This document shows, in pieces, positions 1-7,940 of a stretch of 7,940 nt of DNA. The notes under the pieces are model-generated. The model ran no database searches and had not been told where the DNA came from. It was given only the letters and a program-made list of their open reading frames with translations. The stretch is from a virus (Duplodnaviria; Heunggongvirae; Uroviricota; Caudoviricetes). Position 1 is the stretch's first letter, and each line of letters starts with the position of its first letter. Position numbers and translations under genes: made by a program. The stretch covers positions 1 to 7,940 of the IMG/VR virus record IMGVR_UViG_2563366923_000002; one strand, written 5' to 3'.

Positions 1-1152
1 ATGCTCACCGTTAAGCAGATTGAAGCAGCAAAGCCGAAAGAAAAACCATACCGCCTTCTCGATGGTAATGGCCTGTACCTTTATGTTCCTGTATCCGGGA
101 AAAAGGTATGGCAGCTTCGCTACAAGATTGACGGTAAGGAGAAAATCCTGACCGTCGGAAAATATCCGCTTATGACTTTGCAGGAAGCAAGGGATAAGGC
201 ATGGACTGCGAGGAAAGACATCTCGGTTGGCATCGATCCGGTAAAGGCGAAAAAGGCTTCGTCTAACAACAATTCATTTAGTGCGATTTACAAGGAATGG
301 TACGAGCACAAGAAGCAAGTCTGGTCAGTAGGCTATGCAACTGAACTTGCAAAAATGTTTGATGACGACATTTTACCTATCATCGGCGGCCTTGAAATTC
401 AGGATATTGAGCCGATGCAACTGCTGGAAGTAATCCGCAGATTTGAAGATCGCGGTGCAATGGAACGAGCCAACAAAGCACGCAGAAGATGCGGCGAGGT
501 TTTCCGTTACGCTATTGTCACCGGTAGGGCTAAATATAACCCGGCACCTGACCTTGCTGACGCCATGAAGGGATACCGCAAGAAGAACTTCCCGTTTTTA
601 CCTGCCGACCAGATCCCAGCATTCAATAAAGCACTGGCAACATTTTCAGGAAGTATCGTATCGCTTATTGCGACTAAAGTTTTACGCTACACAGCCCTCA
701 GAACAAAAGAGCTTCGTTCCATGCTATGGAAGAACGTCGATTTTGAAAACAGGATTATCACCATCGACGCCAGTGTGATGAAGGGCCGCAAGATTCATGT
801 AGTACCGATGTCAGACCAGGTGATTGAACTTCTCACTACGCTAAGCTCAATCACTAAACCAGTGTCAGAGTTTGTTTTTGCCGGGCGCAACGATAAGAAG
901 AAGCCAATCTGCGAGAACGCGGTATTGCTTGTGATCAAACAAATTGGCTATGAAGGGCTGGAAAGCGGTCACGGATTCAGGCATGAATTCAGCACGATTA
1001 TGAACGAGCACGAATGGCCTGCTGATGCTATTGAAGTGCAACTGGCACATGCCAACGGCGGATCTGTGCGCGGTATTTACAACCATGCGCAGTATCTCGA
1101 TAAGCGCAGGGAGATGATGCAGTGGTGGGCGGACTGGATTGATGGGAAATGA
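1..1152 (+). CDS. intS: Phage integrase, P4-family tyrosine recombinase (383 aa)
   Basis: N-terminus MLTVKQIEAAKPKEKPYRLLDGNGLYLYV is the arm-binding domain signature of P4-like integrases. The C-terminal catalytic region has R (LRTKELR), HGFRHEF and the tyrosine in VRGIYNHAQY. The translation matches E. coli prophage integrase IntS as I recall it (memory, not a search). Stop TGA at 1150-1152. Confidence 0.93.
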   Translation: MLTVKQIEAAKPKEKPYRLLDGNGLYLYVPVSGKKVWQLRYKIDGKEKILTVGKYPLMTLQEARDKAWTARKDISVGIDPVKAKKASSNNNSFSAIYKEWYEHKKQVWSVGYATELAKMFDDDILPIIGGLEIQDIEPMQLLEVIRRFEDRGAMERANKARRRCGEVFRYAIVTGRAKYNPAPDLADAMKGYRKKNFPFLPADQIPAFNKALATFSGSIVSLIATKVLRYTALRTKELRSMLWKNVDFENRIITIDASVMKGRKIHVVPMSDQVIELLTTLSSITKPVSEFVFAGRNDKKKPICENAVLLVIKQIGYEGLESGHGFRHEFSTIMNEHEWPADAIEVQLAHANGGSVRGIYNHAQYLDKRREMMQWWADWIDGK

Positions 1153-1155
1153 TTA

Positions 1156-1177
1156 GACATTTTCTCTAGAAAATGTC
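1156..1177 (+). terminator. Inverted repeat GACATTTT-N6-AAAATGTC 4 nt after the int stop, followed by GCGCGCTTTTCAC; weak candidate int terminator or protein-binding palindrome
   Basis: Perfect 8-bp arms with a 6-nt loop (CTCTAG) read directly from the sequence. The stem is AT-rich and the T run is short and offset, so terminator function is uncertain. Confidence 0.3.
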
Positions 1178-1236
1178 TGCGCGCTTTTCACTCAACTTTA
1201 TTTCCACACTATAAAAACACAGAATCATAAGGAAAA

Positions 1237-1266
1237 TTTGGAGGTATCTACAAAACTTGATAATAT
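1237..1266 (+). promoter_or_regulatory. Possible sigma70-type promoter for the acyltransferase gene (TTGGAG, 17-bp spacer, TAATAT)
   Basis: Hexamers read by eye about 45 bp upstream of the ATG at 1308. Both are imperfect matches to consensus; no experimental basis. Confidence 0.2.
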
Positions 1267-1307
1267 CGTGACATTTTCACAAACAGAGCAACAGGATAGT
1301 AGCCAAG

Positions 1308-2372
1308 ATGAAATCTAGCACCAAACAAGATGTAGGGATACAATATTTAAGGGGGGTATCTGCTTTATATGTCGTATTTTTCCATTTTAGAGAGTTTTTA
1401 GATAATTTTTTGCCAATAGCTATGTTGGGTCAAAAATTTTTTAGCAATGGCGCTTTCGGTGTTGATATGTTTTTTATAATTAGCGGATATATTATTTCTC
1501 TTTCAACAGAAAAAAAAGACAACTCAATTGTTAAGGGATATATCATAAAAAGATTTTTCAGAATATATCCTGCTTATTTCATAGCACTCTCTATTTTGAT
1601 TATTTTATCCCCAATAAAATATTCTCACCATGATATTTTACGTTCATTTATGATGATCCACCCTGATTATCAATATAATGCACCTTACTTTGGCTATGGT
1701 GTACTATTTACAGCATGGACATTAACATACGAGATATATTTTTATATAATATTTCTAATAGGTATGTTTTTCTCACACAAACATCGCATTATATTTACAT
1801 CAACAATTGCAATATTTGCTATGATATCAATACAGCTTATTTTCAACAAATCAATAAACATTTTCCATCAGGAACAAATTAAAAATGGCGCGGGGATATT
1901 GAATGTCCCAGGAAATATAATGGTTATAGACTTTATATATGGAATGTTTATTTATAAGATTAGAAATCATTTAAAATTAAATAAATATTCTATCGCAATA
2001 TCATTTTTACTTATATCAATTGGATTTATAACAATACAATCAGGAGTAAACGCTGGGCATGGTCCACTGCAATACGGGCTTTACTCCCTAATGATTGTTC
2101 TAGGGGTTGTTATGTACGAGAAAAATAACAAAATTACCGAGATTAAGCCATTGGTTTTTCTTGGAGATATCTCATACTCAGTTTATTTGTATCATGTGAT
2201 AATTGCTACATGTGCATATTCACTCCTATTAAAAATAGGATTTTCAGGATTATCTATGTTCTCTATGATGACAGTTTTATCAATATTTCTTGCGTATATT
2301 TCATATGTTTTAATTGAAGTTCCATCAGTTAAGGTAGGGCATTTAATGTTAAAAAAACAAACGAAAGGTTAA
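1308..2372 (+). CDS. Acyltransferase family 3 integral membrane protein, likely O-antigen/LPS O-acetyltransferase (lysogenic conversion, Oac-like), 354 aa
   Basis: The N-terminal segment IQYLRGVSALYVVFFHF carries the conserved Arg and His arrangement of the first transmembrane helix of acyltransferase-3 enzymes. The whole protein is strongly hydrophobic with many predicted helices. Its position between int and tailspike matches the oac position in Sf6-type phages. Codon usage is extremely AT-rich. Confidence 0.85.
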   Translation: MKSSTKQDVGIQYLRGVSALYVVFFHFREFLDNFLPIAMLGQKFFSNGAFGVDMFFIISGYIISLSTEKKDNSIVKGYIIKRFFRIYPAYFIALSILIILSPIKYSHHDILRSFMMIHPDYQYNAPYFGYGVLFTAWTLTYEIYFYIIFLIGMFFSHKHRIIFTSTIAIFAMISIQLIFNKSINIFHQEQIKNGAGILNVPGNIMVIDFIYGMFIYKIRNHLKLNKYSIAISFLLISIGFITIQSGVNAGHGPLQYGLYSLMIVLGVVMYEKNNKITEIKPLVFLGDISYSVYLYHVIIATCAYSLLLKIGFSGLSMFSMMTVLSIFLAYISYVLIEVPSVKVGHLMLKKQTKG

Positions 2373-2448
2373 ATATTAAAAATGTTCTTCATGGACAATA
2401 GTAAAATACCACCTCCTGAGGAGTTTGTTTAGGGATAACAATAAAAAT

Positions 2449-2475
2449 AGGCATCCAAAATGAATGCCTTTTTTA
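2449..2475. terminator. Bidirectional rho-independent terminator between the convergent acyltransferase and tailspike genes
   Basis: An A-rich tract (AATAAAAATA), a stem of about 6 bp (AGGCAT/ATGCCT, 2449-2454 and 2464-2469) with a 9-nt loop, then a T run (2470-2474). It sits exactly between the two convergent stop codons (2372 and 2476) and reads as hairpin plus U-tract on either strand. Confidence 0.5.
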
Positions 2476-3744
2476 TTACTGAATAAGATAAGCAAAAAAG
2501 CTACAGGCCACTTCGCCAGAAGTGTTGTCTCTTACTATTTTTATAGTATTATCGACGACGCCTGCTGAAATATTTGTTGCAACATCAGTTGATGTCGCAA
2601 TCACACCAATAGACGATGTATTTTGAATTGATTTTATTGTTAGAGGAATTTGTACTGATGCAGATCCATCGGGAATGATAATTATTCCTGTTTGTTTATC
2701 TGGATGGCTTGGTGAATCATTATTTATGAGCCTGCAGTTTGTTGGGCCTACGCTCGCCCCTCCATTAATGACTGTATTATATAGATATGCACTAGCACCA
2801 CCACCTGCATTATCAAAAATGGAAATATCTGCCACCCTGCCACTAGTAAGAGTGCAATTAATTACCCTTACATTCGTTACTGAGTTGACAAGAAGATCCC
2901 CGATTTGTTCATCTACGAGGTTGTTATTTTGGATGATGCAATTGTTTAGAGTTACATTAGAAGGTGAAAATATGTTCTTTGTTATTTCCACCCCCCATTT
3001 TCTACTGTCTGAAAATGTAGAACCAACAGCGGTAAACATATCACTTGAGCCTTCAATAATTGCACAAGATGATGTTGAAGAGTTAGATGAAAAATACCCA
3101 CCAACCAACGTTGCTTGTTTACTGTCCTTTACTCTTAGAGCAGGACCAGTAGCAAGATCTGACATAACGTCAATCAACCATGTCCAAGCCACCCCATCAA
3201 TATCTATTGCTGATAGACCAGCGTCTTCGTAACCGCATGAATAAAATAATTCACCATGCAACTTAAGCCCCTCTGTAATTGTTGAGACATCTTTTTTTTC
3301 ACATCTAGCATAAAACCCGGAATAACAATCTGAGTATGTATTCATAAGCATTCTTGAGTTTATTTGCCCGCCTTCAAATCTTATGCCCCAACTGCTAGCT
3401 GCAAACCTGTTATGTCTAATATCAAGCTCAGCTGCAGAATACCCTGATGGTGAATATATGCATGAGTTTAAAAAAGAAAATGAACACTCTTCTATCGTAA
3501 TAAGAGGACTCTTAATTAGAAAGCCAACACAATTACTTCCACTCTTTCCATATTTTGATGTAATGTTTAACCCATAAAATCGACTAAACTCAGAACCTTT
3601 TAATAAAATAAAGCAAGCATCTCCGTTTTTTAATGGCTCAATTACACTAAGTTTTTTAGAATCTCCATAAATACAAACCACGCTGTCTATTTCAATATTA
3701 GAAATGTAATACGGTAGGTTATTTCCTGGAACATAAATTTTTTT
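2476..3744 (-). CDS. Tailspike, C-terminal receptor-binding segment (right-handed beta-helix, putative O-antigen depolymerase); reading frame is -1 relative to the head-binding segment
   Basis: The ORF frame is open back to a TAA at 3748-3750. Read through the A7 tract, the junction gives ...[43 protein letters not shown]..., the DFGA...AIQ...YVPxG motif typical of pectate-lyase-like beta-helix proteins. The rest is rich in Asn/Ser/Thr/Gly repeats typical of beta-helix tailspikes. AT-rich like the adjacent acyltransferase. Stop TAA at 2476-2478. Confidence 0.75.
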
Positions 3745-4298
3745 GTTTTAGAGCTATCACTCTTAATGGCTTGTATGGCCGAATTAAATGCAGCGCTACA
3801 ATCAGTTCCAGGGATGGCTCCAAAATCAGTTATGCTAATAATCTCTTCATTTTTATCATGTTGTGTAGTGGTTATAGATCCGTCATGCGGCTGCTTTACG
3901 AAAACAACGTGATCATTAACAAGACCTGTTAATGTATCTGATTGTAGTTCACGTTTCAGCATATCAGGGTCATACTTCAGCACATTCGGAAAATAGAACT
4001 GCTGCGAACCGTACGCATCATAAACAGCCATAGAATGGCCTTGCACAGTTACGAACTTGGCAATCTGTCCGTTATATACGGGGTAACCTGCAGCGTTAAT
4101 GATGATTGGTTGCGATACAGGAACGTGAGAGCCGTCTTCGTTCTCTACATAAACCTGAATCTGGTTTTCAGAATTTACCGGGTCAGTGTCAATTTTACCG
4201 ATATAAATTTTGCCATTGGCTACGGCTTTAAAAGAACGAGCCATAGTGAAGAGTTGCGAAGGCATGCTGACCACAACATTTGCGGTGATATCTGACAT
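3687..4298 (-). CDS. Tailspike, N-terminal head-binding domain segment (P22 gp9-like); terminates prematurely at TAG 3687-3689 after the frame break
   Basis: Translation from the ATG at 4296-4298 gives [42 protein letters not shown]...[17 protein letters not shown]...NVLKYDPD, a close match to the P22 tailspike N-terminus as recalled from memory ([42 protein letters not shown]...). GGAG lies 6-7 nt upstream of this ATG. The ORF-track start at 4346 adds 16 unlikely leader residues. Confidence 0.9.
3738..3744 (-). other. A7 homopolymer (coding strand A AAA AAA) where the tailspike reading frame breaks; candidate -1 ribosomal frameshift or slipped-strand site, or a sequencing or decay indel
   Basis: The upstream frame reads ...ACA AAA AAA TTT ATG... 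(TKKFM) and stops 17 codons later. The downstream frame reads AAA AAA ATT TAT GTT (KKIYV) and continues for about 420 codons. One extra A or a -1 slip fuses them. Confidence 0.6.
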
Positions 4299-4323
4299 TT
4301 CATTGCTCCAGACGAATGATATG

Positions 4324-4346
4324 ATGCAACCATGATGTGATTGCAT
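4324..4346. promoter_or_regulatory. Palindrome ATGCAA-N11-TTGCAT (extended imperfect 21-bp dyad TGCAACCATGATGTGATTGCA) in the divergent mnt/tailspike control region; candidate repressor operator
   Basis: Inverted repeat read directly from the sequence, 26-48 bp upstream of the tailspike ATG and upstream of the Mnt-like gene. P22 Mnt is known to bind a palindromic operator, but this sequence is not the P22 operator as I remember it. Confidence 0.3.
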
Positions 4347-4419
4347 ACCGAAATGGTACTATTGAGTATTTATCCAGTAGGTTACGATGCCATTCCACCC
4401 AACTGGTGAGGCATCAAGG

Positions 4420-4680
4420 ATGTACAGCAAATACGACGAGGCGCAGTTTCACTTGAGACTTCCGCATGAACTCCACGCGAAAATTAAGCAGCGTGCGAAG
4501 ATGAATAACAGGTCGCTGAACTCAGAGATAATTGCAGCGATTGAGGAATCATTGGATAAACAAAGCTCTGCATCAGTTTACATTGACGATGCAGAGCGTA
4601 TGGCAGAACAACAATCTGATATGGTTAAGAAAATTGTCTTTGATACGCTCAAGAAGCTATATAAAAAAGACAGCAGATAA
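4420..4680 (+). CDS. mnt: Mnt-like ribbon-helix-helix transcriptional repressor (Arc/MetJ superfamily)
   Basis: FHLRLPHELHAKIKQRAKMNNRSLNSEIIAAIEESL and DAERMAEQQSDMVKKIVFDTLKKLYKK align with P22 Mnt (FNFRMPMEVREKLKFRAEANGRSMNSELLQIVQDAL ... DAERLADEQSELVKKMVFDTLKDLYKK, from memory). The ORF is open from the ATG at 4387; the ATG at 4420 (MYSKYDEAQFHLRLP) fits the Mnt alignment better. Either start is possible. Confidence 0.85.
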   Translation: MYSKYDEAQFHLRLPHELHAKIKQRAKMNNRSLNSEIIAAIEESLDKQSSASVYIDDAERMAEQQSDMVKKIVFDTLKKLYKKDSR

Positions 4681-4700
4681 CCATCCGTTACGGAGGATTT

Positions 4701-4778
4701 ATGCACAGAGATATGCTGAATATTGCGTTCTACATATTTGGTTTTTACACGTTCCTGGTGTTTGCGAAGCTATTCTGA
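4701..4778 (+). CDS. Hypothetical 25-aa hydrophobic peptide (MHRDMLNIAFYIFGFYTFLVFAKLF), possible small single-pass membrane protein
   Basis: GGAGG at 4692-4696 lies 4 nt before the ATG, 21 nt downstream of the mnt stop on the same strand. The peptide has a charged N-terminus followed by an 18-residue hydrophobic stretch. It is too short for the ORF track and has no homology support. Confidence 0.3.
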   Translation: MHRDMLNIAFYIFGFYTFLVFAKLF

Positions 4779-6479
4779 CAGCGCATCAGACTTAGCCCCC
4801 TGAGTCAGGGCGTTAATGGCCTTTTGTGCCTGCTGCATGGCTTTCTCGAACGCTGTTGATCCGCGTGGGGTGTTTGCCATTCGGAGCATTGCATTTCTGA
4901 ATGGCTCGCTCTCATAGGCGCGAGTAAGAAGTCCGTAGCTTACCGCTGCGCCAGTTGTCGCAGGGTTCATTGCCGTCCCATACCCGATAATGAACGGGAT
5001 GGTTTGCTGCCCTGTTGGTGTTGTTACTGCCGCTTTTGCAGCCTGCTGCGTGGATTGCAGGTAGTTTTTCAATCCTTTCAGATAAGCAGCGTCCTGCCCC
5101 TTAAATGTGATGCCAGTCTGGTTTTGCAGGATGTTAAGCTGCCGAAGGAACTGGTCAGGGGATCCGCCAGATTTCTCCATCGCCTTTCCAATGATGCCAT
5201 TGCGCATTTGCGCCCTGCCAACACGACCAACTGAGTTATACAGCGTCTTAATTTCCGATTTGTTCTTGCTGAATAGCATGTTGTTGACAACTTCCGGCGT
5301 CAGATCGCCTTTCATGAGAACATTCTTCAGCCTGGTATTCTTTAGTTTCGCGGCTTCGTCAGCGTAGACGGCATTGGCCTGCTGATATTTACGGAGAGTA
5401 ATAGCACCGCCAGCCAGCACACCAACGCCTAAATCGGTGGCGAGTGCTTCCGCATCATCTTTCGCACTGTTTGCAGCAAGTGATCCAACTGCGTTTTCTG
5501 CTAGAAGGCGAGTTGCCCCCTGAGCAATTCGACCAGCAAGTGTTGGTGACTGTGTTGCCGCTCTCTCAACGCCAGCAGGAGTGAGGTAAGGCAATGCTTC
5601 AGCAAATACCCTTCCCTCTGTCGTTTGTGGAGTCAGCGCGCCTTGCTGAAGGCCAAAGTCCTGCTCTAATCCCTGCGTTGTTACTCGTGGTGCTGGTTGA
5701 TATGTACCATCGCCAATGCCGAGTTTACCTCCAGCCCAAGCCGCCGCGCTTGTTACAGCATCAGTGAGTTCAGCAGGTATGTTCGCTACGTTGATTCCTG
5801 CCTGTAGTAAGCCGCGCCCGGTTTCAGCAAGTCCATTACCAAGGTCAGACATTATTCCGCCTTGCTGCTGAACAGGTTTCGGTGCGACAGAACTTACGGG
5901 TTGAGGTGGCTGCTGACTGGCTGCCTGCTGCTCAATCTGAGCAAATGGATTATTTGGGTCTGACTGCACGCCTGATGCCGATACTTGTTCGGATGACTGT
6001 GCTTCCAGTTGTGCAAACGGGTTGTTAGGGTCTTGCTGAGGATGTACCTTTGCAGAGGTGGCGCGCTGTTCGACTGTTGAGTCTGTCACCGGGTCACCCG
6101 CCCATTGAGCAAAGCGATCATCAACGTAACCGCGGCCTTCAGGTCCTAGCGTATATTCACCACGCTTTGCCTTCATAACGTTGCCGGGACCGTCGTGATA
6201 AGCCTGAAGAGCGTCACGCCAGTTACCAAACTGCTGGTACATCTTTGCCAGATAGCGCGCGCCAGCGTCAGCCTGATATTCGGGGTTTTGCATTTGCTCA
6301 TCGGTATAACCCATATCACGCCATGTCCCAGGCATGACCTGAGTCAATCCTACAGCCCCGGCGGAGCTTACTGCGGCAGGGTTGTAAGAAGACTCCTTGG
6401 CACCCAGTGCAGTCATCAACCCTTCTGGCACACCGTAACGTGCGCCAGCCTGCTCTAACAAATCACGGTAATTAGCCAT
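4770..6479 (-). CDS. Virion internal/ejection-type protein with N-terminal lytic transglycosylase (SLT) domain, 569 aa
   Basis: GAKESSYNPAAVSSAGAVGLTQVMPGTW is the classic SLT motif (catalytic Glu in ES, then S...GA.GL.Q). No signal peptide. It is followed by a Q/P/S-rich linker with a duplicated DPNNPFAQ(L/I)E motif and an Ala/Gly-rich C-terminal region. Its ATG (6477-6479) abuts the TAA stop (6480-6482) of the upstream gene. Confidence 0.8.
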   Translation of the reverse strand: MANYRDLLEQAGARYGVPEGLMTALGAKESSYNPAAVSSAGAVGLTQVMPGTWRDMGYTDEQMQNPEYQADAGARYLAKMYQQFGNWRDALQAYHDGPGNVMKAKRGEYTLGPEGRGYVDDRFAQWAGDPVTDSTVEQRATSAKVHPQQDPNNPFAQLEAQSSEQVSASGVQSDPNNPFAQIEQQAASQQPPQPVSSVAPKPVQQQGGIMSDLGNGLAETGRGLLQAGINVANIPAELTDAVTSAAAWAGGKLGIGDGTYQPAPRVTTQGLEQDFGLQQGALTPQTTEGRVFAEALPYLTPAGVERAATQSPTLAGRIAQGATRLLAENAVGSLAANSAKDDAEALATDLGVGVLAGGAITLRKYQQANAVYADEAAKLKNTRLKNVLMKGDLTPEVVNNMLFSKNKSEIKTLYNSVGRVGRAQMRNGIIGKAMEKSGGSPDQFLRQLNILQNQTGITFKGQDAAYLKGLKNYLQSTQQAAKAAVTTPTGQQTIPFIIGYGTAMNPATTGAAVSYGLLTRAYESEPFRNAMLRMANTPRGSTAFEKAMQQAQKAINALTQGAKSDALSE

Positions 6480-7484
6480 TTACTGCCCCAAAGATGGAAG
6501 ATATCCGTAGCGATTAATGAAGTCGATTGACAGCTCGGGGTGCTGCTTCAGGTAATCTATAGAAGCCTGAGGCGCTTCCACTCGCTTGATACCGTTTTGC
6601 TGAACGTACTTACCAACCGCCTCATTACGCTTCTGGTTGAGCGTGTTCAGGATGACGCCAGCGTTGCGACGAAAGGACTCCTCGCTCTGCGAGTTCTGCA
6701 GCGAACCAACAGCCTGGTCGAGCTTTTTGCCCTCGGCATCAGAAAGTGCGCCCATGCCTCGCATGGCCTGAACCGCTGTCAGGTATGCTTGTGATTTAAA
6801 GGTATCAAGTCGTGCCTGAGTGTCTGCAGCCTGTGAGCCTGGAACGTTGGGGATTACTCCACGTAAGCCTGTAATGCTCTTAAGTGAAGGAGAACTAACG
6901 ATATCGTTCAGAGTGAACATGCTGGTTGTGATGGTGTTGATGCCGTCTTTGTAGCCATCATTTAGCGCTTGCTGCTTCTGCTGCAACTGCTGGTTGTTGG
7001 CTGCTATGCGGCTCTGTATTTCCTGGCGCTTCAGGTCGTTAGTTTCTGCTGATAGCATCCGGTCAAGGCGCTTATTTTCGTTGTTAATGCGGTTTGTTTC
7101 TGCGTCCAGGTTAATGCGCTGCTGACCTAAATTCGCCTGGATATCTTGTCCGCGCATTGTGATTGCCTGATTCCGAGCGGCGGTTTGCGAATCCAGATCC
7201 TGACCGCGCATGGTAACCTGTCGACCCTGCATTTTATCCTGTAGGTCAAAGTATTTTTCGGGCCCGAGACTGTTCATCCCCAGGTGATCGACAAATTCGC
7301 CGAACTGCCGCGGGTTCTGTTGGTACATCTGAGCGACGTCATGAGGATTAACGCCAACACGAGCTAACTCACCGGCGTTGTTTTGCAGCCATGATTGCAT
7401 TGCTTCTGGAGAAGATGACGCAAGACGTGCGCCAGCCGCTAATGTACCGATAGAATTACGCTGGTCTTCATCAATGAATCCCAT
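6480..7484 (-). CDS. Putative virion/ejection protein, Gln/Asn-rich with coiled-coil-like repeats, 334 aa; start uncertain, possibly 5'-truncated
   Basis: Long ORF tightly coupled to the downstream SLT gene. Contains a tandem peptide repeat (VTMRGQDLDSQTAARNQ / AITMRGQDIQANLGQQR). The ATG at 7484 has only AGG one nt upstream, and the frame stays open a further 24 codons to a stop at 7557-7559 with no alternative start. Confidence 0.6.
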   Translation of the reverse strand: MGFIDEDQRNSIGTLAAGARLASSSPEAMQSWLQNNAGELARVGVNPHDVAQMYQQNPRQFGEFVDHLGMNSLGPEKYFDLQDKMQGRQVTMRGQDLDSQTAARNQAITMRGQDIQANLGQQRINLDAETNRINNENKRLDRMLSAETNDLKRQEIQSRIAANNQQLQQKQQALNDGYKDGINTITTSMFTLNDIVSSPSLKSITGLRGVIPNVPGSQAADTQARLDTFKSQAYLTAVQAMRGMGALSDAEGKKLDQAVGSLQNSQSEESFRRNAGVILNTLNQKRNEAVGKYVQQNGIKRVEAPQASIDYLKQHPELSIDFINRYGYLPSLGQ

Positions 7485-7606
7485 GCCTTTACGAACGGAT
7501 TCAATCTGGTCTGGATATTGAGTATACCCCTCCGAATGAGACTCAACAAGCTGGAGCTAGACTACCAGCCACCACACCACCAAAGCTAACTGACAGGAGA
7601 ATCCAG

Positions 7607-7692
7607 ATGGATGCACAAACACGCCGCCGCGAACGTCGCGCAGAGAAACAGGCTCAATGGAAAGCAGCAAATCCCCTGTTGGTTGGGGTACT
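7607..7692 (+). pseudogene. N: 5' fragment of a lambda-type N antiterminator gene (arginine-rich boxB-binding peptide), diverging after about codon 28
   Basis: AGGAG at 7595-7599 with 7-nt spacing to the ATG at 7607. Translation MDAQTRRRERRAEKQAQWKAANPLLVGV equals the N-terminus of phage lambda N as I recall it, then continues as unrelated LIQYQRENALCVMQMWCPRTRKTN with a stop at 7763-7765. No nutL boxB hairpin found upstream. Confidence 0.7.
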
Positions 7693-7712
7693 CATTCAGT
7701 ATCAGAGGGAAA

Positions 7713-7940
7713 ATGCGCTATGTGTCATGCAAATGTGGTGCCCAAGGACCAGAAAAACGAACTAAATCTGAAGCGATTTCTTCATGGAATAGTCGAATGA
7801 AAGTATGGGTTTATGATCCAGAAACCATATTAAACGCTGAAGAGCGCAGGAGAACGGAAGTCTATATTCATAACCTTAATGAAGATGGATTTACACCAGT
7901 GCTTGTAAAGGCTACTCCGCAGGAGGTTACCGGCGTGTAA
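7713..7940 (+). CDS. Small protein with Lar-like (restriction alleviation family) C-terminal motif, 75 aa from the ATG at 7713; possibly a truncated or degenerate family member
   Basis: VSCKCGAQGPEKRTKSEAISSWNSR resembles the second zinc-knuckle and C-terminal region of Lar-family proteins (C..CGA.GP...EAI.AWN.R, recalled consensus), but the first CPFCG knuckle is absent. AGAGGG lies 4-5 nt before the ATG. The ORF-track version starts at 7611 and overlaps the N fragment in another frame, so that upstream part is probably not real. Stop TAA at 7938-7940. Confidence 0.4.
   Translation: MRYVSCKCGAQGPEKRTKSEAISSWNSRMKVWVYDPETILNAEERRRTEVYIHNLNEDGFTPVLVKATPQEVTGV

Follow-up and report, generated by a model that had tools for sequence, protein, structure and literature searches.

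Introduction

HK97 gp15 and T4 Imm are examples of the small membrane proteins with which phages prevent DNA entry, and some determinants of this kind are morons inside late operons. The SieA protein of phage P22 is a protein of the inner membrane and prevents the injection of DNA by P22-like phages only (PMC10883804). Escape from SieA maps to the C-terminal regions of two ejection proteins, through the changes G532W and P546S in gp16 together with changes in gp20, and P22 hybrids carrying the ejection proteins of Sf6 or L are excluded as well (PMC10883804). Here we describe a small open reading frame (ORF) at positions 4701-4778 (+) of a 7,940-nucleotide (nt) stretch of viral DNA (IMG/VR record IMGVR_UViG_2563366923_000002, positions 1 to 7,940; hereafter the window), which is part of a P22-like (Lederbergvirus-type) Escherichia coli prophage. 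The ORF occupies the position that sieA has in P22, beside gene 16 and on the strand opposite to the late genes, and its homologue in prophage BTP1 lies inside a second described exclusion locus, STnc6030. We consider it somewhat probable, from the sequence comparisons presented below, that it encodes a prophage-expressed inner-membrane micropeptide that blocks DNA injection through gp16 in a manner similar to SieA, to which it is unrelated.

STnc6030 was described as a 786-nt transcript (D23580 403942-404727), on the same strand as the small ORF of BTP1 and highly expressed in lysogens, and it was classed as non-coding because it contains no ORF of more than 60 amino acids (aa) (PMC7067206). 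When the STnc6030 fragment was cloned under a constitutive promoter, its expression from the plasmid was tolerated and resulted in total immunity to BTP1, while P22 was not excluded (PMC7067206). Spontaneous induction of the resident BTP1 prophage was unaffected by the cloned fragment, an effect that the authors left unexplained (PMC7067206). Escape phages, which were sequenced locally only, carried four single-nucleotide polymorphisms (SNPs) within D23580 404041-404078, all of them nonsynonymous in the injection protein (PMC7067206). The locus is still listed as an antisense RNA in a 2025 review (PMC12197685), and the paper on SieA (PMC10883804) does not cite STnc6030. What is already known about this locus is thus its exclusion phenotype and not its coding nature.

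A small ORF between mnt and the gp16-type gene

The small ORF consists of 25 sense codons followed by a TGA stop (4776-4778), and its predicted product is MHRDMLNIAFYIFGFYTFLVFAKLF. A GGAGG Shine-Dalgarno sequence (4692-4696, +) is separated by the 4-nt spacer ATTT from the ATG start at 4701-4703; this arrangement had been pointed out in an earlier note on this DNA, and its coordinates were confirmed. The peptide has a polar N-terminus (MHRD) followed by one hydrophobic helix-length segment, and the grand average of hydropathy (GRAVY) of residues 5-25 is 1.7, a hydrophobic core that supports the proposal of the same note that the product is a small single-helix membrane peptide. The ORF is co-oriented with and downstream of mnt (4420-4680, +), which encodes an 86-aa protein (RefSeq coding sequence WP_001543869.1) with Pfam Arc and Repressor_Mnt domains. 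The stop of mnt ends at 4680, which leaves a gap of 20 nt before the ATG of the small ORF and not of 21 nt as first given.

On its other side, the small ORF converges with the gene of a gp16-type DNA ejection protein of 569 aa with an N-terminal SLT lytic transglycosylase domain (4770-6479, -). The two frames had been said to overlap by a few bases, and the overlap measures 9 nt (CTATTCTGA, 4770-4778), whose plus strand encodes L-F-stop and whose minus strand encodes S-E-stop. It covers the last two sense codons of the gp16-like gene and its TAG stop codon at 4770-4772. In an alignment of the 25-aa and 23-aa classes of the peptide described below, L24 and F25 are invariant, and this invariance fits a dual coding constraint in the 9-nt overlap.

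The presence of such an ORF is not significant by itself because positions 4300-5000 are overlapped by 19 ORFs with a length of 20 aa or more, and it is the comparative evidence that raises it above chance. All 94 unique sequences of the family start with ATG, and at least 5 nt of AGGAGG are placed 3-12 nt from the ATG in 58 of the 94, so that the conservation of reading frame and Shine-Dalgarno sequence suggested as a check by the earlier note was indeed found in related prophages. That note had also considered that a pattern of synonymous versus nonsynonymous change might be missing; it is present. The ratio of nonsynonymous to synonymous polymorphism (pN/pS) in the frame of the ORF is 0.34 in the 25-aa class (36 unique sequences) and 0.22 in the 23-aa class (45 unique sequences), in both cases the lowest value of the six frames, and this frame alone is free of stop codons in every sequence of both classes. 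The family is thus under purifying selection at the level of the encoded peptide. In the 23-aa class, the minimum numbers of changes at the three codon positions are 14/8/42 (chi-square p = 2e-7).

The difference between the 25-aa and the 23-aa classes is an in-frame 9-nt indel. Over codons 2-14, the consensus sequences of the two classes have one identical codon, seven codons with synonymous differences only and five with amino-acid changes. The synonymous-only differences include AGA versus CGT for arginine, and shifted frames give just 0-1 synonymous codons. The small ORF is therefore very probably a real gene under selection and, as far as can be read from its sequence, it is an intact, previously unannotated gene that P22-like prophages carry in their hundreds. 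The RefSeq and GenBank records examined all lack an annotation for it, and a look-up among 15 billion collected proteins found the exact sequence of none of 10 peptide variants. A profile search of PDB gave no match to the peptide, and neither did a full-text literature search for four of its substrings, in which subscription journals were outside reach.

Conservation and distribution

The related loci were fetched through the neighbouring gene: the last 150 aa of the gp16-like proteins from the window, Citrobacter and Pseudescherichia served as queries against IMG/VR and against one genome per GTDB species, the latter contributing at least eight loci. An intact small ORF in the same register was recorded in 183 of the 184 informative loci with this gp16 C-terminus. 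The sole miss of the script (L107) was an offset error, the ORF being present there nevertheless, and one locus (L012), whose sequence stops 30 nt beyond the gp16 stop, was left out as uninformative. The small ORF is absent from P22 and from one Yersinia prophage, in both of which the gp16 end is divergent. In a reverse search with the peptide alignment, every one of the loci found (80/80) adjoined a convergent gp16-like end, and the small ORF is thus linked to gp16 in both directions of the search.

An alignment that included Sf6, Gally, 720R6, 683R2 and IME10 showed that homology starts exactly at the ATG, whereas the sequences upstream are unrelated among the contexts in which the ORF is found. 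There are four such contexts: directly beside the divergent tailspike gene, as in Sf6 and BTP1 (92 loci); behind mnt, as in the window (~56 loci); behind a lipoprotein gene (~34 loci); and divergent from orf62, in phages L and ST64T. Members of the 25-aa class, whose consensus is MQRDMLNIAFYIFGFCTFLVFAKLF, come from E. coli, Shigella and a part of Salmonella. The 23-aa class (e.g. MERDLLNFAFLIFGLVVGKLLFA) occurs in Salmonella, Citrobacter, Pseudescherichia, Erwinia and Klebsiella and is the one carried by phages L, ST64T, ST104, MG40, g341c and BTP1, and a 26-aa form is found in Arsenophonus. Across at least seven genera the gene is intact, with a length of 23-26 codons. Among 5,426 complete E. 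coli genomes, at least 213 (~4%) carry this region.

Several further observations concern the neighbourhood of the ORF. In phage Gally (L004), two predicted lipoprotein genes (964-1479, +, phrog_6067; 440-859, -, phrog_6823) have the lipoboxes LLAGC and LLSGC, respectively. The pair also occurs in ~34 IMG/VR loci, within the 'ant moron', and the function of both genes is unassigned. The first of them ends 21 nt upstream of the small ORF and appears operonic with it. In two IMG/VR contigs (L239 225-299 and L242 2501-2575), a change of the stop codon from TGA to AGA extends the peptide (MQRDLLNIAFYIFGFCTFLVFSKLFR...), and the same change alters the C-terminus of the gp16-like protein on the opposite strand. 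In a prophage of Yersinia aleksiciae (L095), the equivalent slot contains a different ORF of ~42 aa (VLEIASFVALAAIVYLIRQVGILSNRVSELEKITDRLNDKIN), encoded on the opposite strand just past the gp16-like stop. It has a GGAGG and an N-terminal hydrophobic helix, with an intrinsic-terminator-like hairpin upstream, and the slot adjacent to gp16 may repeatedly host small membrane proteins.

Relationship to STnc6030 and SieA

The homologue in BTP1, MERDLLNFVFLIFGLVVGKLLFA, is located at D23580 404321-404250, between the injection-protein and tailspike genes. It corresponds to nt 407-478 of the 786-nt STnc6030, whose orientation it shares, and there is an overlap with the stop of the gp16-type gene. 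By mapping the cloning primers NW_295/296 onto BTP1 we could delimit the insert used in the exclusion experiment (positions 1095-1880 of the BTP1 locus, L268), which contains the small ORF (L268 1501-1572) as well as its GGAGGG and a TATAAT at 1474-1479. Among the ORFs on the plus strand of the insert, the small ORF alone starts with ATG, and it has a strong Shine-Dalgarno sequence too. A search of PMC6333337 for BTP1 transcription start sites yielded the STnc6030 annotation and no start site near the ORF.

The small ORF of the window and the adjoining gp16 3' end are homologous to this part of STnc6030 (tblastn), with which they agree in strand and register, and these two elements are the only homology shared. 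The BTP1 transcript begins inside the tailspike gene, whereas the ORF of the window follows mnt. As mnt lies between ORF and tailspike in the window, the 5' part of STnc6030, antisense to the tailspike start, is not matched there. The two loci differ also in how they have been seen, STnc6030 having been described as a non-coding antisense RNA with its ORF unrecognised.

The escape region of BTP1 encodes residues 583-595 of its gp16-like protein, ILGIGTVTNPALV. The homologous residues of the window protein, 497-509 (IIGYGTAMNPATT; 4953-4991, -), are our proposed target of the peptide and are identical in Sf6 gp13. In our own alignment, P546 of P22 gp16, one of the two gp16 positions changed in escape from SieA, aligns with V589 of BTP1 in the middle of the 13-residue escape segment, and G532 aligns seven residues upstream of this segment. 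The positions through which phages escape from the two determinants thus coincide. The segment of P22, RLGAAIPTLGKSL, differs from that of BTP1. Furthermore, the peptide classes co-vary with this segment, the 25-aa class occurring with GYGTAMNPATTGAAVS and the 23-aa class with GIG[TS][VA]TNPAL[VI]G[VA]GGG.

The parallels with SieA, itself a prophage-expressed membrane protein, are those of place and of escape. Both genes are found in the slot between the homologues of gene 16 and gene 9, adjoining the stop codon of gene 16 and opposite to the late operon, and the escape mutations of SieA lie in the C-terminal region of gp16 that aligns with the escape cluster of BTP1. The earlier note was hence right about the sieA neighbourhood. 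The proteins themselves are different: SieA, of which types A, B and C are distinguished, has ~160-200 aa (164 in P22) and is multi-pass, whereas the peptide has 23-26 aa and one hydrophobic segment. Their specificity differs as well, since SieA acts on hybrids with Sf6 or L ejection proteins and STnc6030 spares P22. HK97 gp15 and T4 Imm resemble the proposed peptide in that they are located in the inner membrane and keep related phages from delivering their DNA, but they are unrelated in sequence, several-fold larger and directed at other injection machineries.

SieA proteins are characterised by the motif FxRYPxEAxxFNK (PMC10883804), and the peptide has neither this motif nor any sequence similarity to SieA. 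A six-frame regular-expression search of 267 loci found the motif in P22 only and in none of the 266 loci of the peptide family, so that peptide gene and SieA motif never co-occur among the family loci fetched. The idea that the ORF might be the remnant of a superinfection-exclusion gene of the sieA type was rejected, as there is no similarity to SieA, the motif is absent from the 266 loci, and the gene is intact at 23-26 codons in at least seven genera. Of the earlier suggestion, the link to superinfection exclusion persists through the homologue inside the BTP1 exclusion locus, and the descent from sieA does not.

Proposed role of the peptide

We propose that the small ORF is expressed in the lysogen from the prophage strand, against the direction of the late operon. 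The repressor gene mnt is a lysogen-expressed gene in P22. In the window the small ORF is probably the second cistron behind mnt, because the gap between them is only 20 nt and contains no terminator. A candidate Pmnt promoter, CTGACA-17-AATGAT, is found at 4292-4320 (+); it matches the sigma-70 consensus at 9 of 12 positions, and it is this consensus match alone that designates it. In Sf6- and BTP1-type phages, the small ORF would instead be expressed from the lysogen-expressed transcript annotated as STnc6030. The single-pass peptide would then reside in the inner membrane of the lysogen and would keep incoming P22-like virions with a cognate (Sf6-type) gp16 from finishing the delivery of their DNA. 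Its point of interference would be the glycine-rich segment of moderate hydrophobicity in the C-terminal region of gp16 (~497-509 in the window). It would be SieA-like in effect while being ~7 times smaller and unrelated in sequence.

This reading accounts for the two peculiarities of STnc6030. The induced resident prophage would be unaffected because induction involves no injection step, and P22 would be spared because its gp16 segment differs. Moreover, that two unrelated determinants in the same position are escaped via the same gp16 segment points to a block at the protein level during DNA entry. We infer that the effector of STnc6030-type exclusion is the peptide of 23-26 residues and not the RNA, a proposition to which we would give about an even chance and which would make it smaller than any other phage exclusion protein known, a 'mini-SieA' of one helix.

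A number of points weigh against it. The codon-position changes in the 25-aa class, to which the window belongs, are 17/11/20 (p = 0.27), a modest signal when taken alone. The family is in no protein database queried, and three variants of the peptide had no match in Pfam, NCBIfam or PHROGs. Its translation and its location in the membrane are themselves predictions. The peptide of the window is only ~55% identical to the 23-aa peptides of the BTP1 type, and at this level of identity its function is one transferred by homology. The proposed target segment is only moderately hydrophobic (GRAVY 0.9-1.3), and both its co-variation with the peptide and the strict linkage of the two genes could be a consequence of their physical linkage, ~200 nt apart. 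In Sf6-type loci, in which the ORF stands alone, a canonical sigma-70 promoter was not found by scans of the intergenic region; conserved there is just a -10 element resembling TATAAT, ~22 nt upstream of the ATG, that has no -35 element to go with it. Finally, the escape SNPs map to sequence complementary to the 3' part of the 786-nt RNA, as they might if the RNA were the effector.

If the proposed role is correct, a published antisense-RNA exclusion factor would be reassigned to a hidden micropeptide and the open paradox of the unaffected induction of the resident prophage would be resolved. A new and extremely small family would join the prophage defences directed at DNA entry, and a segment of ~13 residues in gp16 would emerge as the weak point that two unrelated exclusion proteins have in common, by which the poorly understood injection conduit formed by gp16 and gp20 would become directly testable. 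The gap between gene 16 and the tailspike gene of Sf6-type phages has been described as being without a moron (PMC2629481), and it would carry a gene after all. On a practical matter, a functional gene present in model phages would have been lost to length cut-offs such as that applied to STnc6030 (no ORF >60 aa), its unannotated carriers being Sf6, L, ST64T, BTP1 and ~4% of complete E. coli genomes.

Alternative explanations

As RNA structure could also have been the cause of conservation at this locus, positions 4200-5000 of the window were scanned with Rfam at E-values up to 10, which returned meaningless matches to eukaryotic snoRNAs only. No terminator was detected around the small ORF, nor between mnt and the ORF, and folding was no better than that of shuffled sequences on either strand (z-scores about -0.2; -0.26 for the leader). 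RNAalifold gave an empty consensus for 61 diverse sequences on both strands. With no Rfam family, terminator, excess folding energy or consensus structure, an explanation of the conservation by RNA structure was rejected.

An alternative effector is a long cis-antisense RNA, as published for BTP1: in the window, transcripts reading through from mnt into the 3' end of the gp16-like gene would pair with late mRNA that a superinfecting phage produces and make this mRNA unstable, and the peptide would have no part in exclusion and serve another role, or the transcript would have a dual function. We regard this as possible but doubtful. BTP1 is excluded by a transcript of 786 nt that lies antisense to both the gp16-like gene and the tailspike gene (PMC7067206), P22 has no nucleotide similarity in the STnc6030 region and is not excluded, and in the window the lack of a terminator after the small ORF makes an antisense read-through RNA plausible. 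However, complementarity is perfect along the 786 nt, ~320 nt of which are antisense to the gp16-like gene, and one SNP should not abolish such pairing; nor would one expect the induction of a resident prophage with identical late mRNA to be unaffected. All four escape SNPs change the protein, in a region where P546S aligns within the segment and G532W seven residues upstream. The major STnc6030 species on Northern blots is ~480-500 nt long (PMC7067206) and, if it shares the annotated 5' end, would stop 3-23 nt past the stop of the ORF, short of the escape region. Furthermore, an RNA-only model leaves unexplained the purifying selection, the conserved ATG and Shine-Dalgarno sequence and the in-frame indel, and in the window the upstream sequence is mnt and not the tailspike gene's 5' end, with the ORF and the gp16 3' end alone being shared with BTP1. 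A membrane peptide with a different role, either a type I toxin-like peptide, as suggested by the earlier note, kept in check by antisense transcripts of the late operon or others, or a modulator of a host membrane protein as a case of lysogenic conversion, seems unlikely to us. Type I toxins and small membrane regulators are comparable in size and hydrophobicity, and toxins such as Hok, Ibs, ShoB and TisB are likewise hydrophobic single-helix peptides (19-50 aa) that are missed by annotation and overlapped by an antisense transcript. Here, the late operon transcript is fully antisense to the small ORF, which moreover lies in the 'ant moron' region, where accessory genes gather (PMC2629481). 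On the other hand, the Shine-Dalgarno sequence is strong and exposed, without the closed, structured leader of the toxin genes, and no conserved antisense-RNA promoter, terminator or structure was found, a scan of the strand opposite to the ORF having revealed no promoter- or terminator-like sites. No toxin family was matched in Pfam, NCBIfam or PHROGs. Neither the probable co-transcription with a constitutively expressed lysogenic repressor gene nor the high expression of the BTP1 locus in lysogens without reported toxicity would be expected of a toxin, overexpression of the fragment from a plasmid being tolerated too, and strict linkage to one type of gp16 is unexpected for a factor directed at the host.

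The simplest alternative, that the ORF is a chance frame in a conserved non-coding spacer such as the 3' untranslated region of the gp16-like gene or a recombination joint, appears highly improbable. Short ORFs are indeed abundant, as a stretch of 700 nt has 19 that reach 20 aa or more, no pipeline annotates this one, and the 25-aa class alone has no significant codon-position bias. A spacer would yet have to keep ATG in 94 of 94 sequences and a frame open in two diverged classes with the lowest pN/pS of the six, as well as produce the third-position bias of the 23-aa class (p = 2e-7), an in-frame indel, a synonymous switch between arginine codon families and a homology boundary that falls exactly at the ATG in four contexts.

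Other features of the window

One RNA element was noticed between the small ORF and the tailspike start of Sf6-type loci (L092 and others). A conserved hairpin, GCGCAAG-N6-CTTGTGC, lies there on the late-operon strand (e.g. L268 1425-1455). Its variants (GCACAA/TTGTGC and GCGCAAG/CTTGCGC) maintain the pairing, and one position is G-U paired when the late strand is read but an A-C mismatch when the opposite strand is read. This pattern suggests that the late transcript contains an RNA element just upstream of the tailspike ribosome-binding site.

The closest match of the window is NZ_CP061764 (E. coli strain O19:H7 730V1), from which it differs by one indel and two mismatches over positions 1162-7524. 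Besides the genes discussed above, the window contains an integrase gene (1-1152, +), an acyltransferase gene (1308-2372, +), the tailspike gene (2476-4346, -) and the gene of a gp20-type ejection protein (6480-7484, -). In the window (1-1169), the integrase gene is free of the IS5-family insertion that it has in NZ_CP061764. The tailspike gene consists of two ORFs in different frames (3687-4346 and 2476-3681), where NZ_CP061764 has a single coding sequence of 608 codons, and the split is due either to a frameshift in this copy of the prophage or to a sequencing error. The prophage of the window looks partly deleted. Collinearity with NZ_CP061764 ends at 7524, the gp20-like ORF is without its N-terminal ~110 codons, and it is followed by an unrelated ORF of 109 codons (7611-7940, +).

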